Below the pieces are notes generated by a model that saw nothing but the letters and a program-made list of their open reading frames with translations, was not told the DNA's origin and searched no databases. Shown in pieces: positions 4,981-12,721 of a stretch of 64,000 bases of DNA. Origin of the DNA: Solirubrobacteraceae bacterium (GTDB lineage: Bacteria; Actinomycetota; Thermoleophilia; Solirubrobacterales; Solirubrobacteraceae); the NCBI GenBank assembly GCA_035939185.1, contig DASZGB010000005.1, positions 182,713 through 246,712 of the forward strand. The letters are read 5' to 3'. A program made the translations under genes and the position numbers. Positions within the stretch are counted from its first letter, which is position 1. Every line of letters starts with the position of its first letter.

Positions 4981-7407
4981 GCCGCGCTCCTTCCGGGTTG
5001 GTCGGGGGTCGTTTGCAGCGCTTGCAGCAGGTGCGGGTAGACGAGGTCGATCTGCACCTCGCCGACACGGCCGTGCAGGTCGCGCATTAGGCAGCGCCCC
5101 GCGCGGAACTCACGGACCCGGCCGACGAGCTCGCGGGTCGGGTCAAGGCCGATGAACCGCAGCGCGGCGCTCGCGGCGTCGTCGGAGTCCTGGCCGAAGA
5201 CGAACACGACGCCGATCAGGTCAGACAGGTCCCCGAGATCACCAATGCGGTGTGTGCCGAGCAACAGCGTCGCGTTGAACGCACGCCCCAAACGGACCAA
5301 GCGGTTGATGATCTGCCGCCCCTGTGGGGAGGCGAGCAGGAACCAAATCTCGTCCAGGCCGACGACCTTGTGCCGTGAGCGATCCCGTGAGATCAACTGG
5401 AGCGCATAAGCGGCGACCAGTGAAAGCGTGGCGACGGAAACGCGCTCCGCGCGTGTGTATGTATCGCGGGCCGCTGACGGTTCGGGCAGCGACAGGCCCG
5501 GCATACGGATCGTCGTGACCGGCCGGTCGGCCTGAATGTCTGTCGCCTGGCCGTCACCGAACCCGAGGCGTGCGAGGCCGAAGTCGCGGATCACCTCAAG
5601 CGCTTCACCCGCCTCCCGCGCGGTCGCACGGTCGGTCTGTTGCAGCAGCTCGACGACGCGCGAAAGGCTTCGCGAGCCCTCGCTTACCGTGTCCTTGACC
5701 GCGAGGCTGACAGCGTTCTCCCACGAAGCCGTGTTGCCGGGAAGCAGCTCAAGCAGGTAGGAGCAGGCAAGCTCCTCGCGCAAGTCCTCGAGCCCGATCG
5801 CTAGCGGGTCGAGCTTCCCCTGCTGCGCGGGGTCGCCGGAAAGCTCAAGCACCTGCACCCGCCCGTCAAGTTCGGGGAGCTTGTGCAGCCCGTGGTCGGG
5901 CTTCGGATCGAAGTCCACCACCAGCGACCCGCGTCGCTCGGCTGCGTACTCGATCGTCTGCGCCGCAACCGTCTTCCCGCTGCCAAGCGTCCCGATGAGC
6001 AGGACGGCTGAGGCGCGATCTTCCCTCGGTGCTTGTGTCGGATCGAACCGCACCGGCAAGGGCGCGCCGGTCGGGGTGTACCCGAGATATGGGCCGCGCT
6101 GGGAGCCGACCATCCGGCTTCCGGTCGCGATGAGCGCCCCGAACTGCTCGACGGTGAGCTGCTGGGTGTAGTCGCGCACGTCAGACCCACCCGTCCGGTC
6201 GTGGCAAGTGGTCGAGCCAGAGCTGGTGCTGCAATCCGGCGGGGCGGTGCAGCGTGATGTCGCCGTACTGCTCTTTCAGAACGGAGACGCGACGCTCCAG
6301 CTCCTCCTCTGTGGGCGCGCCGACGGCGAGCCCGATCTGCGTGTAGAGCATCGGCGGGTGCCCGCCGGCCTCTAGTTGCGCCTCGTACTCGCGGGCGAGA
6401 ACACGGTCAGCGCCCGCCATCAGGCTCGGACCGTGCGCGGCACCCTCGACCTGCTCGTTGTAGGCGTGCTCCACGTCTGCGATCCGCTTGCGCACCTGCG
6501 CGAGCGCCTGCCGGTTTCCCAACCAGCGCGCGTGAAGGCAGGCATCAACAGGGAACCCGACGGCCTCCAGTGGGGCGAAAAGCGCCTCGGCGGTCGTACC
6601 TGGGAACTCGGGGGCGTCGGCGAGCGCGCCGAGCGCGAGCATCGCCTGAAATGACCGGCCCTGCTCACCGTCCACCACGAGTGTCTGCTTCTGCTCGGTG
6701 ATCGCGGCGTTCGCGCACCGTTCAAGATCGTGGCCGAGCGGCGTAAACGCGACCCCACCGCCGGGGGCGGAGATGATGAGCGCGTCGGGCTGCCAGTTAC
6801 GGTCAAGCTCCGGCTCCGCTACGCCCCGACAGGAGGTGCGGCGTAGCAGCCATTGAAGCTCGACGGTCCTCGCGCGCCGTGCTCCGATCACACCGTTCAC
6901 CCGCTCGTAGATCCGCTGCTCGCGGGTCGCGAGTTCCGCGAGCTCTGAGGCGGGTATAGGTGAGGCGGCACCGATCCCGGCCAGCTCCTCGACACGGCGC
7001 CGGACACGATCGACGTTGCGCACGAGCCCGGAGCCGACTCCCGTTGGTGTGTTGCCGGCGAGCGAGACTGCGAGGTAAACCTCGGGGATGTGCGACCCGA
7101 GCTGGTGTAGGCGCTGCTCGTGCCCGGCGAGGAACGCCTGCCACGCCCGGCGGTCCTGGTGGCGGTCATCCAGCAGGCGTTCGGTATGCCGCACGTACCG
7201 CTCGGCGGGGTAGGCGCGGTTCACCCGCCAGAGCGAGAAGTCAGCGGCGATTGTGTGCGCCAACCGTTGGAGGCGGCGCTGTAAGGACCACTTCTCCCCG
7301 GTAGGGAGATACGGGTAGATGCTCATCGCCAGCCGGTAAAGGCCGGCGGGCTCACCGCCACGCCCCAACAGCACGTTGCCGTGCGCGTAACGCAACGGGA
7401 AGGTCAT
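4977..7407 (-). pseudogene. virB4: VirB4/TcpF-like conjugation ATPase split by a +1 frameshift near 6190
   Basis: ORFs 6181-7407 and 4977-6179; Walker A GTLGSGKT and Walker B VVGLDEIW are in the second. Removing one G from GAC GGG TGG GTC TGA C GTG gives GAC GGT GGG TCT GAC GTG CGC GAC (DGGSDVRDY) and one ~809-aa protein. Confidence 0.8.
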
Positions 7408-8114
7408 GGCCGGATCTCCACGGCCTGTCCGTCCGCCAGCTCGATCACTTCAGCAAGCCGCTCGCCGCTGCGCAGCCGGTGACCGTCGGCGTGGCGGACG
7501 ATCAGCCGCCCACGGCCAGAGATCGCCACTACTGGGCGAGCGAACACGAGTCGCGCGGGGCCTCGCACCTTCCCGTGGTGAAGCACGGGTGCGTGCTCGT
7601 CCGGTGCGACCCATACGTGCGGTGCCCACACCTGCTGCTCGCCGTCCGGGGTGATTGCTCGGTCCAGGGAACGGCGTGCGGCGCGTGCCCGCAGCGAAAG
7701 CAGCGAGGTCAGATAGCGGTGTGCGGGCCGCCCGTCCGGGGAGGCCTGCCCGGCGAGCGTAGCGACCATGCCGGGAGCTATCAGCAGCCGCAGCGGCCAG
7801 TCGAGCCACCCCAACACCACGCCCGCCAATAGCGTCGCTACGAACCCCGCGACCGCACCAATGATGGCGCCGGGCCAGCCGTGCGAGCTTGCACCAAGCA
7901 GACCAACGATCGCGCCGAGCACCAGCGCGAACACGATCGAGCGCTGGCTCAGCACGAGGATCGCGACCAGCGCAGCGAACGCCCAGCCGAGCCACTCAAG
8001 CGGCACGCCGCCAGGAACCGGCAGGCGCCGACCGTCGATCTGGTAGATACGCCGCTCGGGCTTGAATATCCGCTGGTAAGAGCGGATCGTGTGTGGAGAG
8101 TCACTCATCGCCAC
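7404..8114 (-). CDS. TcpE/VirB3-like conjugal transfer membrane protein
   Basis: RSYQRIFKPERRIYQIDG..LPVPGGVPL followed by TM helices; immediately upstream of VirB4. Confidence 0.7.
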   Translation of the reverse strand: MAMSDSPHTIRSYQRIFKPERRIYQIDGRRLPVPGGVPLEWLGWAFAALVAILVLSQRSIVFALVLGAIVGLLGASSHGWPGAIIGAVAGFVATLLAGVVLGWLDWPLRLLIAPGMVATLAGQASPDGRPAHRYLTSLLSLRARAARRSLDRAITPDGEQQVWAPHVWVAPDEHAPVLHHGKVRGPARLVFARPVVAISGRGRLIVRHADGHRLRSGERLAEVIELADGQAVEIRP

Positions 8115-9756: not shown

Positions 9757-9812
9757 ACATACGTCCGGCCACGCTGCGCTAATCGCGGCGACAGACCAGC
9801 TCGCATCCTGAG

Positions 9813-10499
9813 CTACAGGTCGCTGAGTTCGCGGAAACGACGAGCCGCCGGGGTGGCAGCCGCCAGCTCGCCGAGACGAGACACGAGCCCAGCGTGATGC
9901 AGCGCCGCCAGCGCTTCGCGTGCCGCGCCCGAGTCACCCAGGCGCCCGGCAATGTCCCACACCGGTCGCCAACAAACCGACGGCGATCCGAGCAACAAGT
10001 CCAGGACCTCACGCTCCGCGACAGCCAGACGCCCACCAGAACCGCCAGGGCCGCCGGGTGAGCAGCCGGCCACGGCCCGCAATGCCCCCTCGACCATCGC
10101 CTGCGTCTCAGCCTTCCGCGCGAGCTCGCGCAGCTTCCGGACTCGCCTATTGAGCCTGCGCCGCCTGGATTTGCTGTGCCCTTCCGCCCGGGCGTTCTCA
10201 AGCTGGCCCTGGCACACGGCGGTTTCGTGATCCAACGCCTCGAGCAAAGCCCAGCAGTTCTCCCGGAGAGAGACGACTATCTCCCGCGGGGGCTCCTGGG
10301 CAGTCCAGCCGACAGCGTCCAGCAACGCCCGGATCCGATCAAGGCGTGCCAGCGGCTCTCGCTGCCAGCCCTGGCAACGCTGCTCCGCCGGGCGCGCCTG
10401 GAAATCCGTGAGCGCTTCCCCTACCAGCCGCAGCTCTTCGTACAGACCCTCCCGCACAAACCGCACCATCCCGGCCGGCACCACAAACATCGTGCTCAT
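9813..10499 (-). CDS. Hypothetical protein, paralog A (helical N-domain + probable wHTH C-terminus)
   Basis: RBS AAGGAG before ATG 10499; similar by eye to 11323-11991. Confidence 0.7.
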   Translation of the reverse strand: MSTMFVVPAGMVRFVREGLYEELRLVGEALTDFQARPAEQRCQGWQREPLARLDRIRALLDAVGWTAQEPPREIVVSLRENCWALLEALDHETAVCQGQLENARAEGHSKSRRRRLNRRVRKLRELARKAETQAMVEGALRAVAGCSPGGPGGSGGRLAVAEREVLDLLLGSPSVCWRPVWDIAGRLGDSGAAREALAALHHAGLVSRLGELAAATPAARRFRELSDL

Positions 10500-10535
10500 C
10501 CTGCTCTCCTTTCGCTCACACCGAGAAGGCACGCG

Positions 10536-10680
10536 CCAGCGAGCACGACGAGCAACCGCAAGAGCTACGGTTCCCGTGGCATCGAAGGGCCACCCTTCGG
10601 TGCTACCGGCCGGGCGGGTGCTACCAACACCCCCCGGCCACTAGATTTTCTGGTTGAGCAGCGATCAGAGCAGAACCCGC
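10536..10680. repeat. Structured leader repeat copy A (candidate ncRNA)
   Basis: Imperfect direct repeat of 12081-12232; hairpins 10576-10606 and 10608-10639, then a T-rich tract. Confidence 0.8.
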
Positions 10681-10857
10681 CACGGATCTCAAGAGGACGC
10701 CAGAACGAGCCCCGCCAGGCAGCCAAGAACGACGCTGGCTGGCACCGTACGCCGCTGGTCGTGCCGGCCAGCGCGCGCAACCAGAGCCGGCTGGATGCTC
10801 CCATCGGGGGCGGTGCAAGCCGCCGCGCCCACCGTCACACCCAGGTGGGTACCTCCT

Positions 10858-11268
10858 CTACTGGTTGTGGCGAGGACGGCGCAGTTGGTGGCGAGCAGCA
10901 ATTGTCATCCCCTCGTTACCTTGCCAGCGGCGTTTGGCGCGAAACGCCGCCGGTGAAACCCCATAGCAGCCACGAAACGCATGGGCAAAGTAGGACGACT
11001 GGTGGTAGCCGACCAGTCTCGCTACATCGCGCACCCGGATCGTGGGGTCGGATAGCAACCCGGCGGCGGCGACCATCCGTCTGGCCAAAAGATCGTCGCG
11101 GAAGGGTGCCGCTGCCGAACTGGGCATAGGCGCGCTGTAACGCTGCAAGCCGAACACTCCCTCGGCCTGCGCGAGTCGATCACCCGCCGATACGACGAAC
11201 TCACCCGCTCGCTTGACGAGCAGCTCGGCCTTGAGCCCGCCCGCGAGACTCGACTCATTTACAGACAA
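10858..11268 (-). pseudogene. AraC-type HTH regulator, probably frameshifted
   Basis: C-terminal LLSDPTIRVRDVARLVGYHQSSYFAHAFRGCYGVSPAAFR. The preceding LQRAYAQFGSGT lies in another frame (extra base near 11105). Confidence 0.6.
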
Positions 11269-11322
11269 TTGCTCGGGCAGGCCTAGTCGAGAAGGGCTGG
11301 TTGGCAGTGTCCCTGCGTGGAC

Positions 11323-11991
11323 TCATACGCCCAATATCCCGAGATCACTTAGGCGGCAAGCGCACCTTGAAGCCCAAACCCGATCATCGAGCAAGTGAAT
11401 CGCCCCGGCGTCGCGCAGCGCATATAGCGCAGCGGTGACAGTCTTTGGCTGTACGTGGGATATCTCGCCCCGCAGTTCGGCGCGTGACCACTGCTCGGTG
11501 TGATCGTCACGGAGCACCTGCCAGACGATGGCCCGTTCGGCGGTGTCCTGGTCGTCGTCACGGACGATGCGCTTTTGACGCTCGCTGGCTTTGGCTTCCA
11601 GCGCTGGAAGACCGGCTAGAAAGCCCTCGATCGCGGCGATGGCACGCTCGGCTTCGTCTCGTAGCTCCGCGCTGTTCTCCTCGTCGTTGCGGTGATTGTG
11701 CTGCGTCCACAGCTCGTTCTGTAGACCGCTCCGCAAGATTGCTGCCCACGAGCCAGTCTCGATGTCGGCCTCGACCGGCGGGCCGGTCCTCTGCCAGTCG
11801 ATCACACGCAGTAGCTCGCACGCCTGATTGAGATTGCGCAGTGGCACCTCGAACCATCCGAGGTTTTCTGCACGGGTATGGAAGGCCTCGTCCAATTCTT
11901 CGGCGAGACGCCAGACCTCAAGCTCCAGACCGGAGTACGCCAGCGGGACGACCACTGCGGGGATAGTGATTGAGCTACTTTGATCGCGCAT
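11323..11991 (-). CDS. Hypothetical protein, paralog B (helical N-domain + probable wHTH C-terminus)
   Basis: RBS AGGAGG upstream; AERAIVWQVL...WSRAELRGEI...AALYALRDAGAI wHTH-like end; similar to 9813-10499. Confidence 0.7.
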   Translation of the reverse strand: MRDQSSSITIPAVVVPLAYSGLELEVWRLAEELDEAFHTRAENLGWFEVPLRNLNQACELLRVIDWQRTGPPVEADIETGSWAAILRSGLQNELWTQHNHRNDEENSAELRDEAERAIAAIEGFLAGLPALEAKASERQKRIVRDDDQDTAERAIVWQVLRDDHTEQWSRAELRGEISHVQPKTVTAALYALRDAGAIHLLDDRVWASRCACRLSDLGILGV

Positions 11992-12080
11992 GGGAGTGAT
12001 ACCTCCTGTGTCACGGTCTCGGGCGGGGCTCCAATCCCCGCGCCGAGGCCAATATGGGCCTTTGGGGGCACCGAATGACC

Positions 12081-12232
12081 GCCGGCGAGCACGACCGATG
12101 ATCCGCAGAGAGCTACGGTGGGCGTGGCATCGAAGGCGCGTCCTTCGATGCCACAGGCCGGGCGGGGTGCTAACGACACCTCGCTCGGCCGCATCGTTTT
12201 TCGCTTGCTGGCGCGATCAGAGCAGAGCCCGC
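12081..12232. repeat. Structured leader repeat copy B (candidate ncRNA)
   Basis: Hairpins 12124-12154 (13-bp perfect) and 12156-12190 (14 bp with 2 G-U), T-tract 12197-12201. Confidence 0.8.
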
Positions 12233-12293
12233 GGCGGAAAAACTTGCGACTGTCCGCAAAGGCCAGCTTGCGCGGTCGGCAGTCGCATACGAC

Positions 12294-12695
12294 TCATCCG
12301 TCTGAGTCTTCGATTAGCTCCCTCGGCCGAACGCGCAATCCGCGAGCAAGGCGCTCGATCGTCGTGAGCTGCGGGTCGCTCCCGCCGTGCTCGCACGTAC
12401 CGATCGACGTTCGATTGACAAAGCCCGTTCGGCGAGCGAGCCCAGCCTGCGTCAGGCCGCGCTCGGTGCGAAGGTCGCGTAGTCGCCGACCAAACGCAGC
12501 ACACACGGCGCTCACATCCAAATAGCCGAGCGCGTCCGGGTCAACACCCAGCCCTGTCGCCAGCGCCGGCAGCAAGGCGTCGGTCGGAGCGAGCCGACCA
12601 GCTTCCCAGCGCTTCAAGCTCCTCACGCTCGACGAGCGCAGCAGAAGCAAGCTCGGCCGGCGTCATTCCCCGCTCCTCGCGTGCCTGTCGGACCG
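12294..12695 (-). pseudogene. Tandem-HTH XRE family regulator, frameshifted and 5'-truncated
   Basis: C-terminal HTH FGRRLRDLRTERGLTQAGLARR. First HTH AVRQAREERGMTPAELA...EELEAL|EAGR is joined by removing one G at ~12606; no start codon, in-frame stop just upstream. Confidence 0.75.
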
Positions 12696-12721
12696 CCTGT
12701 GGTCGAGGTCATGCGCGACCC

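Follow-up and report, generated by a model that had tools for sequence, protein, structure and literature searches.

A hairpin cassette upstream of mobile-element genes in Solirubrobacterales, with a candidate cis-antisense RNA on the strand opposite the gene

The head of a type IV secretion system (T4SS)-type conjugation operon, read from the minus strand, occupies positions 9800–12700 of a 64,000-nucleotide stretch of DNA (hereafter, the window) from a Solirubrobacteraceae bacterium (GCA_035939185.1, contig DASZGB010000005.1, positions 182,713–246,712). Two copies of a structured element lie in this region, copy A (10536–10690) and copy B (12081–12240). The copies are about 78% identical on alignment, and a third copy is found on another contig of the same genome (C16:336644–336796). 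An initial annotation, made from the letters of the window alone, had singled out the duplication, and this claim holds: counting relatives, 165 distinct copies have been gathered in total, every one from Solirubrobacterales. The element, called here the cassette, represents a previously undescribed, order-wide family of about 200 nt, found before regulator genes of mobile elements in Solirubrobacterales, the hosts being uncultured soil bacteria. On balance, we lean towards the proposal that the cassette encodes a small cis-antisense RNA of about 75–90 nt, consisting of two hairpins (H1 and H2) and a U-rich tail, directed against the 5′ leader of the downstream gene.

The layout is common to all copies and is, in plus-strand order, as follows: the reverse complement of the start codon, a ribosome-binding site (RBS) hairpin, a conserved box, hairpins H0, H1, and H2, a T-rich stretch, and a conserved block. 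The gene is on the opposite strand, with its start codon 25–40 nt from the cassette in almost every copy. The gene served by copy A (9813–10499, minus strand) encodes a 228-residue protein with no Pfam family and a winged-helix-like C-terminal part. Its start codon, CAT on the plus strand, is at 10497–10499, and a GGAG (the reverse complement of 10506–10509) is positioned 7 nt upstream. This RBS is partly covered by an mRNA hairpin, CCUUCUCGG..CGAAAGG, the two together extending over 10506–10529 on the minus strand. The family has two clades, that of the window and a distant one; with few exceptions, copies of either clade have the RBS, as its reverse complement, in such a small hairpin 5–9 nt past the start codon, and the mRNA reads CUUCGGUGC-N-CCGAAAGGAGG.

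Between the RBS hairpin and H0 is GCGAGCACGAC, the conserved box of the window's clade, which in copy A spans 10539–10549. H0, a fourth hairpin additional to those annotated initially (CCGCAG..CUACGG, with its wobble pair on the minus strand), overlaps a promoter-like TANNNT box. In copy A, H0 (CCGCA..UACGG) is at 10556–10571 on the minus strand, and the -10-like plus-strand box, TACGGT, is at 10566–10571. The predicted small antisense RNA of copy A extends from 10576 to 10650 on the plus strand, with H1 at 10576–10606, H2 at 10608–10639, and a TTTT at 10646–10649. The H1 stem, GCAUCGAAG/CUUCGGUGC, is almost invariant and its loop is variable; H2 has 12–14 G+C-rich pairs. The window clade's conserved 3′ block, GATCAGAGCAGA, follows as GATCAGAGCAGAACCCGC at 10663–10680. 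Copy B repeats this arrangement: the box GCGAGCACGAC is at 12085–12095, H0 at 12103–12118, the plus-strand TACGGT at 12114–12119, and the block, GATCAGAGCAGAGCCCGC, at 12215–12232. Its predicted antisense RNA spans 12124–12202 on the plus strand, with H1 at 12124–12154, H2, including two G·U pairs, at 12156–12190, and a TTTTT at 12197–12201. The conserved unit runs from the start codon and RBS hairpin through the GATCAGAGCAGA block, copies A and B in their wider delimitation spanning 10500–10690 and 12056–12240; the unit of about 145 nt recognized at the outset is present but is shorter than the true one.

The cassette is widespread within one order. A DNA search of 61 relatives found 1–5 copies per genome in 23 of the 37 genomes of the genus. 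The initial annotation had called for a covariance model and a search of Actinomycetota. Such a model, built from 39 copies, matches 40 of the 301 genomes of the order Solirubrobacterales, in 12 of its 81 genera. In 401 genomes sampled across the phylum, the model has no match outside the order, and about 385 other Actinomycetota yielded no copy. An exact-pattern scan of 185,579 species genomes matched at least 120 stretches. Among the matches listed (80), almost every one comes from a metagenome-assembled genome with the label Solirubrobacterales, Solirubrobacteraceae, or Conexibacter; a few are labelled Thermoleophilia and Gaiellales, and a handful are apparent chance matches in other phyla. 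A distant-mode search of a plasmid collection gave no match to the cassette, and a literature search on Solirubrobacterales and antisense RNA gave nothing relevant. Scanning with Rfam 15 (cmscan) gave no match at the gathering score in the window, and none of note at E values up to 10 in positions 10400–12400, where only chance-level matches appeared (mir-5985, E 1.2; scr4677, E 1.9). A resemblance to the a/b target architecture of the P1/P7 C4 antisense RNA, noted by eye at first, finds no support in these scans, in which no Rfam family, C4 and c4-a1b1 included, was matched at E up to 10.

Which strand the hairpins favour can be read from their wobble pairs. These were counted in a MAFFT alignment of 39 copies, where a G·U cell counts for the plus strand and an A·C cell, which is G·U on the other strand, counts for the minus strand. 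H2 contains 51 G·U cells and no A·C cell. H1 contains 85 G·U and 12 A·C cells, and all 12 come from a minor class shifted by one base. For H0 the count is 2 G·U versus 28 A·C; at its pair 36–52, 25 copies have C·A on the plus strand, equivalent to U·G on the minus strand, and 13 have U-A. H1 and H2 of the distant clade display 35 plus-type wobbles versus none of the minus type. Plus-type wobbles occur at 13 or more different pair positions, and the minus type is found at no position of H2. Changes from one Watson-Crick pair to another go by way of plus-strand wobbles: C-G, U·G, and U-A are found at 102–135, and G-C, G·U, and A-U at 107–130 and 110–127.

Folding energies show a similar division. 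For H1 plus H2, the plus strand gives the more stable fold in 40 of 41 copies, and the mean difference is 11.7 kcal/mol; for H1 of copy A, the values are -23.8 kcal/mol on the plus strand and -15.9 on the minus strand. H0 and the RBS hairpin are each more stable on the minus strand in 33 of the 41 copies, by 2.5 and 1.1 kcal/mol on average. The two halves of the cassette are selected on opposite strands, H1 and H2 on the plus strand and H0 and the RBS hairpin on the mRNA strand. The first reading had counted six non-Watson-Crick pairs, all G-U on the plus strand, and took all the evidence to point to that strand. The pairs number five (two in H1 of copy A, two in H2 of copy B, and one in a third hairpin, hp3, described below), all of them G·U on the plus strand, and the wider claim fails, as H0 and the RBS hairpin favour the mRNA strand. 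What survives of the plus-strand cis-antisense RNA suggested there concerns H1 and H2, for which the wobble bias in 39–76 copies, the covariation of H2, and a plus-strand TANNNT in 143 of the 165 copies speak for such an RNA.

A simpler account would have the whole cassette act on the minus strand, as an mRNA leader that is a protein-binding site, an attenuator, or a riboswitch-like structure, with the A·C positions being tolerated or functional mismatches and no antisense RNA being made. The cassette is contiguous with the RBS and start codon at a fixed spacing, H0 and the RBS hairpin favour the minus strand, and four CCGAAGG-like or CCUUCG-like segments could pair alternatively in the manner of an attenuator. 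The minus strand also folds beyond dinucleotide shuffles, with z = -3.1 for copy A and -3.6 for copy B; the plus strands give z = -4.7 and -4.8. The wobbles tell against this account. The H2 imbalance (51 versus 0) has the wrong sign for it, the two conserved wobbles of H1 are A·C mismatches on the mRNA, and the intermediates between Watson-Crick pairs are always plus-strand wobbles; in addition, the plus-strand TANNNT box is left without a role. We regard a leader-only function as unlikely.

The stems covary, as had been claimed from the two copies in the window. In the MAFFT alignment, 92.6% of cells are paired versus 35–53% for slid partners, and none of 500 shuffles matches the covariation score. 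In a second alignment of 76 matches, which was fitted to, and so leans towards, the covariance model's own structure, both sides have changed in 21 of 29 pairs, 96.5% of cells are paired, and again no shuffle of 500 scores as high; slid controls are 35–55% paired. RNAalifold on the raw MAFFT alignment returned a poor consensus of 16 pairs, and the structure was then set by hand and refined with the covariance model. The sequence of H2 differs by clade (GGCCGGGCGGGUG versus GGCCCCGGGGCG) with pairing kept; judging from these alignments, it is the structure of H2 rather than its sequence that is selected. H1 behaves otherwise. Of 72 copies, 69 retain its U·G pair; copy B of the window, with U-A, is a rare exception and the only copy whose H1 is Watson-Crick throughout. 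This conservation points to a constraint on H1 beyond pairing. Two further candidates were rejected. A closing stem around H1 and H2 (ACGGUG with CAUCGU), seen in the fold of copy B, is not kept as a pairing in other copies. A small plus-strand open reading frame (ORF), with GAAGG in H1 followed by GUG, has its frame broken by indels in H2 and has an early stop in the distant clade.

The covariation also bears on whether the inverted repeats might simply be operators, that is, sites in double-stranded DNA bound by, for example, the downstream OmpR-type or winged-helix regulators, with no folding involved. Many of the downstream genes do encode DNA-binding regulators (among 52 proteins, 9 match Trans_reg_C and 8 match Response_reg), the H1 stem is nearly invariant, and CTTCGG/CCGAAG recurs at the RBS hairpin. 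On the other hand, H2 varies in sequence by double changes that preserve its pairing, and strand-biased wobbles are meaningless for a double-stranded site. Furthermore, at least five unrelated gene families are served, many without a recognizable DNA-binding domain. Operators are reckoned to be an improbable explanation.

The predicted RNA is preceded by a promoter-like sequence. A plus-strand TANNNT ends 6–10 nt before the GCAUC of H1 in 143 of the 165 copies. Its T, A, and T are constant, and variation is confined to the three letters between them (CGG, CCG, GCG, GCT, GGC, and others), the commonest forms being TACGGT (98), TACCGT (32), and TAGCGT (5), with TAGCTT, TAGGCT, TAGACT, TACCTT, TATGGT, and TACCCT as further variants. 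The gap to H1 equals the spacing of an actinobacterial -10 box from its transcription start, if transcription starts at the foot of H1; the box is a match to consensus only. A possible -35 region of copy A is the box GCGAGCACGAC, which precedes the plus-strand -10 box by about 17 nt. In the distant clade, the minus strand has a second TANNNT 18–26 nt beyond H2 (TACGTT, TAGGTT, TACGGT, TACCTT, or TAAGTT), and it would start the mRNA 10–20 nt outside H2′, the counterpart of H2 on the mRNA. The two TANNNT boxes of the distant clade face each other about 110–130 bp apart, which is a converging-promoter layout. Where that clade has a plain minus-strand TANNNT, the window's clade strongly keeps the block GATCAGAGCAGA(A/G)CCCGC (10663–10680 and 12215–12232). 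Aligned to the distant clade, the 3′ block of copy A matches the place of the minus-strand TANNNT and has TCTGAT there. The mRNA promoter or a regulator site may lie in it, and the block could be read by another sigma factor or by a regulator.

The position of these boxes is relevant to another explanation, in which the plus-strand hairpins would form while the DNA of the mobile element is single-stranded, in conjugative transfer or in rolling-circle replication. As with Frpo and ssi of F-like plasmids, they would then provide a single-strand promoter or a priming site from which the downstream genes are expressed early. The context is mobile, with the T4SS operon beside the copies of the window and relaxase-type genes near a distant copy. 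G·T is the most stable mismatch in DNA too, so the strand bias fits single-stranded DNA as well, and Frpo-type promoters require that the folded strand be the template for the genes downstream (PMC11541004, PMC9849209), which is so here. Nevertheless, the stems are only 9–14 bp and lack -35 and -10 boxes within them, and the TANNNT boxes are external to the stems, in an arrangement that suits double-stranded DNA; the tight link to the RBS hairpin is also left unexplained. We give this explanation a slim chance. Integron attC sites, IS200/IS605 ends, and oriT, judged on anatomy only, have been put aside: core-site motifs are absent, no transposase gene is close by, and these sites are also disfavoured by the presence of several copies per element and by the tight RBS linkage.

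At the other end of the predicted RNA, the frequency of T is 50–60% at +7 to +11 after H2 throughout the family, in a genome of 67% G+C. The T runs of copies A (TTTT) and B (TTTTT) are 6 nt past the H2 stem. A simple scan calls H2 plus the tail of copy B terminator-like but not that of copy A, and the yield of the scan is not above that of shuffles. The initial description of two hairpins followed by a T-tract with a terminator-like end is accurate as regards H1, H2, and the T-rich stretch; the end is atypical, as a spacer of about 6 nt separates the T run from the stem.

Several points weigh against the antisense proposal and are gathered here. No clear -35 box was identified, and a simple sigma-70 scan found no promoter on either strand. 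The expected mRNA -10 of the window's clade, within the GATCAGAGCAGA block, reads TCTGAT and lacks the key A, and the mRNA promoter was not found there. The T-rich stretch lies about 6 nt past H2, unlike a classical intrinsic terminator, in which the U run is within 0–2 nt of the stem. The near-invariance of the H1 stem needs a further reason, for example, a protein partner. The region covered by the antisense RNA does not overlap the RBS, which excludes simple occlusion; it follows that any antisense effect must be indirect. The words of H1′ and of the RBS hairpin that figure in the refolding step proposed below are conserved, and their variants do not covary. Finally, the copies share descent, so that the counts are not independent events, and the model-fitted alignment has the bias mentioned above.

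Given the antisense proposal, the following mechanism is suggested. The cassette would be a portable control unit before a mobile-element gene, read from both strands. On the gene strand, it would form the mRNA 5′ leader, with H0 and the hairpin that covers part of the RBS. On the plus strand, transcription directed by the TANNNT box (TACGGT here) would yield an RNA comprising H1, whose U·G hardly varies, the G+C-rich H2, and a tail rich in U. It would be fully complementary to the first 90 nt or so of the mRNA leader and would stop short of the RBS. By pairing with the nascent leader, it would lower expression of the downstream gene. This could come about in one or more of three ways: the duplex might be cleaved or decay, converging polymerases might collide, or the leader might refold. 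We infer plus-strand transcription, the end of the RNA, and the direction and route of regulation from sequence.

The refolding route would work as follows. The H1′ arm of the mRNA, GCACCGAAG, is the exact complement of CUUCGGUGC, the anti-Shine-Dalgarno word of the RBS hairpin, and H1′ is weakened on the mRNA by A·C mismatches. The H1′ arm could thus pair with CUUCGGUGC; capture of H1′ by the antisense RNA would then free CUUCGGUGC, and the RBS hairpin would close. When H2′ and H1′ were blocked in silico in 157 leaders, a thermodynamic model gave a drop in the unpaired probability of the RBS from 0.43 to 0.34, with openness of the RBS falling in 58 copies and rising in 16. This predicted shift is modest and is weak evidence for refolding. 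Because the variants of H1′ and of the anti-Shine-Dalgarno word do not covary, the refolding step is speculative.

A bolder extension would make the RNA a two-way riboregulator that also acts in trans, the RNAs of a single copy or a single mobile element opening or closing the RBSs of all cassette genes in the cell. H1 of every predicted antisense RNA carries CUUCGGUGC, the same word as the anti-Shine-Dalgarno arm of every RBS hairpin, and the other arm of H1 mimics the Shine-Dalgarno side. The word is nine bases long, and the words shared by H1 and the RBS hairpin are kept across the order. We consider trans action quite unlikely; if true, it would imply cross-talk or immunity between co-resident mobile elements.

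The genes behind the cassette are diverse. At least five unrelated families are found, many without a recognizable DNA-binding domain. They include atypical OmpR-type response regulators, small winged-helix proteins, 135-residue proteins that share the motif DFRLLxDLGW and match no Pfam family, a 230–250-residue family (FEPVSD...SATYCL), and a 131-residue family (LLDVVGW). In the set of 52 downstream proteins, Pfam matches are, beyond the 9 to Trans_reg_C and 8 to Response_reg, 1 to Replic_Relax, and no Rep family is matched. In the distant clade, the cassette most often precedes a gene of the family of about 135 residues (MPxTTxTIxRDQRDGLYELVRNHL...AERLGLEFAEDFRLLQDLGW...ELTMP, no Pfam), for example, at L116:5643–6053, L128:5158–5556, and about 20 other loci; at L083 a tandem duplication is encoded. 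The two genes of the window were considered as homologues of this family and rejected, since the family profile misses both even at E up to 10.

Each copy in the window had been described as preceding a paralogous minus-strand gene. This is true of position only in part, and the likeness of the two proteins is weak, at 31% identity over the N-terminal 72 residues. The gene downstream of copy B (11323–11991, minus strand) encodes 222 residues with no Pfam family. It is separated from copy B by a degenerate remnant of an RBS hairpin (GGGCCTTTGGGGGCACCGAA, 12056–12080, minus strand), which aligns with the RBS hairpins of other copies and has no gene behind it, and, immediately after the remnant, by hp3 (12015–12050). 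In the closest relative (L002, 88% identical), a 257-residue OmpR-type regulator starts at the place of the remnant. Because of this regulator, present where copy B has a geneless degenerate RBS hairpin, we infer that a regulator gene has probably been deleted in this genome, joining copy B to the next gene.

The hairpin hp3 had been taken as a third hairpin of the same type as H1 and H2. It is instead a different, conserved intergenic hairpin, separate from the cassette. Across more than 20 related loci (e.g., L002:562–612 and L124:3004–3053), a stretch of about 50 nt is 92–100% identical, so that hp3 is more conserved than the cassette itself; a second copy in this genome is at C16:335717–335764. 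Elsewhere, it is positioned between a cassette-served response-regulator gene and the RBS of the next gene. Its plus strand is the more stable, at -28.7 versus -25.0 kcal/mol.

The surroundings of the cassette are mobile elements. In the window, a TcpE gene is at 7404–8114, and genes for ArsR-, AraC-, and XRE-type helix-turn-helix (HTH) proteins are close by. The neighbours of a distant copy are Replic_Relax, large serine recombinase, IS21, SIR2, and PIN genes. Some individual loci deserve mention. Between copies A and B, a 136-residue ORF (10858–11268, minus strand) has a C-terminal AraC-type HTH (HTH_18) only and is probably a gene fragment. The third copy of the genome precedes a minus-strand OmpR-type response regulator (C16:335849–336657) that is apparently broken by a frameshift; it consists of two overlapping ORFs, a receiver of 160 residues and a DNA-binding part of 123 residues, and a frameshift is the likely cause of the split. 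At L082:4715–4909, two head-to-head cassettes on opposite strands overlap in their H2 and T-rich parts.

To our knowledge, the Solirubrobacterales, although abundant soil Actinomycetota, have almost no molecular genetics, and the regulation of their mobile elements is uncharted. Against this background, the cassette, with its 165 copies, strong covariation, and lack of an Rfam 15 match, is put forward as a well-supported candidate regulatory RNA family on sequence grounds. It marks regulatory genes of the group's integrative and conjugative elements, and its covariance model can be used to find and annotate such elements in soil metagenomes. The locus is also a worked example of how wobble-pair asymmetry assigns the hairpins of one locus to opposite strands. 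If the antisense proposal is true, several uncharacterized families, namely, the 135-residue DFRLLxDLGW proteins, the 230–250-residue proteins, and the atypical OmpR-type regulators, would be under common control.

How does the cassette compare with known systems? C4 of phages P1 and P7 is cut from its target's own transcript and acts through two short loops, a′ and b′, on a2 and b2 sites. The predicted RNA of the cassette would likewise be a small, structured regulator carried by a mobile element, with short complementarities between loops and target. It differs in that its RNA is proposed to be a true cis-antisense product with full complementarity; because the wobbles lie on the strand opposite the gene, the hairpins do not belong to the target's own transcript, unlike those of C4. 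The RNA-OUT/RNA-IN pair of IS10 offers a second comparison. RNA-OUT is complementary to the very 5′ end of its mRNA, is a single hairpin, covers the start-codon region, and is specific for the transposase. Complementarity to the extreme 5′ end of the mRNA and facing promoters would be shared with the cassette, whereas a single hairpin placed over the start-codon region of one transposase gene is not what the predicted cassette RNA looks like.

CopA/CopT of plasmid R1, the countertranscript RNA (ctRNA) of pGA1 (Corynebacterium), and RNAIII of pIP501 are plasmid countertranscripts that control rep genes and, hence, copy number. They resemble the scheme proposed for the cassette in that two promoters converge over about 100 nt, a small structured antisense RNA is made constitutively against a leader, and this RNA acts away from the RBS through leader refolding or attenuation. 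The genes behind the cassette, in contrast, encode response regulators and small uncharacterized proteins, never a recognizable Rep, and the Rfam families of plasmid ctRNAs (pGA1, pND324, pT181, and p42d), CopA, and RNAI give no match to the cassette.

In Frpo, the folded single strand forms a long imperfect duplex that contains the -35 and -10 boxes (PMC11541004). Like Frpo and ssi, the cassette is a strand-specific folded element before conjugative-element genes, and its folded strand is the template. The cassette stems are far shorter (9–14 bp) and have no -35 or -10 box inside, the promoter-like boxes being outside the hairpins.

FinP of F-like plasmids is a two-stem-loop RNA with a U tail, transcribed opposite the traJ 5′ leader and covering the traJ RBS (PMC3105414). 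The cassette has the two stem-loops, H1 and H2, and the T-rich stretch corresponding to the tail. As in FinP/traJ, the predicted RNA would come from the strand opposite a leader whose gene encodes a regulator and opens a conjugation region, and the antisense hairpins mirror the leader hairpins. The differences are as follows. H1 of copy A is 67 nt from the GGAG, with the plus-strand TANNNT in between, and the overlap ends at least 60 nt upstream of the RBS. No sequence or covariance-model similarity to FinP (RF00107) is found. The host belongs to an actinobacterial order, many unrelated genes are served, and there is no known FinO-like partner.

Having neither a model match, nor RBS overlap, nor a rep gene, the cassette is not considered a member of the FinP, countertranscript, or C4 families. 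By analogy, it would be in kind the cis-antisense control region of a mobile element, nearest in design to FinP/traJ and to the countertranscripts that act away from the RBS. Its unusual traits are its portability before unrelated genes and the nine-base word common to H1 and the RBS hairpin.

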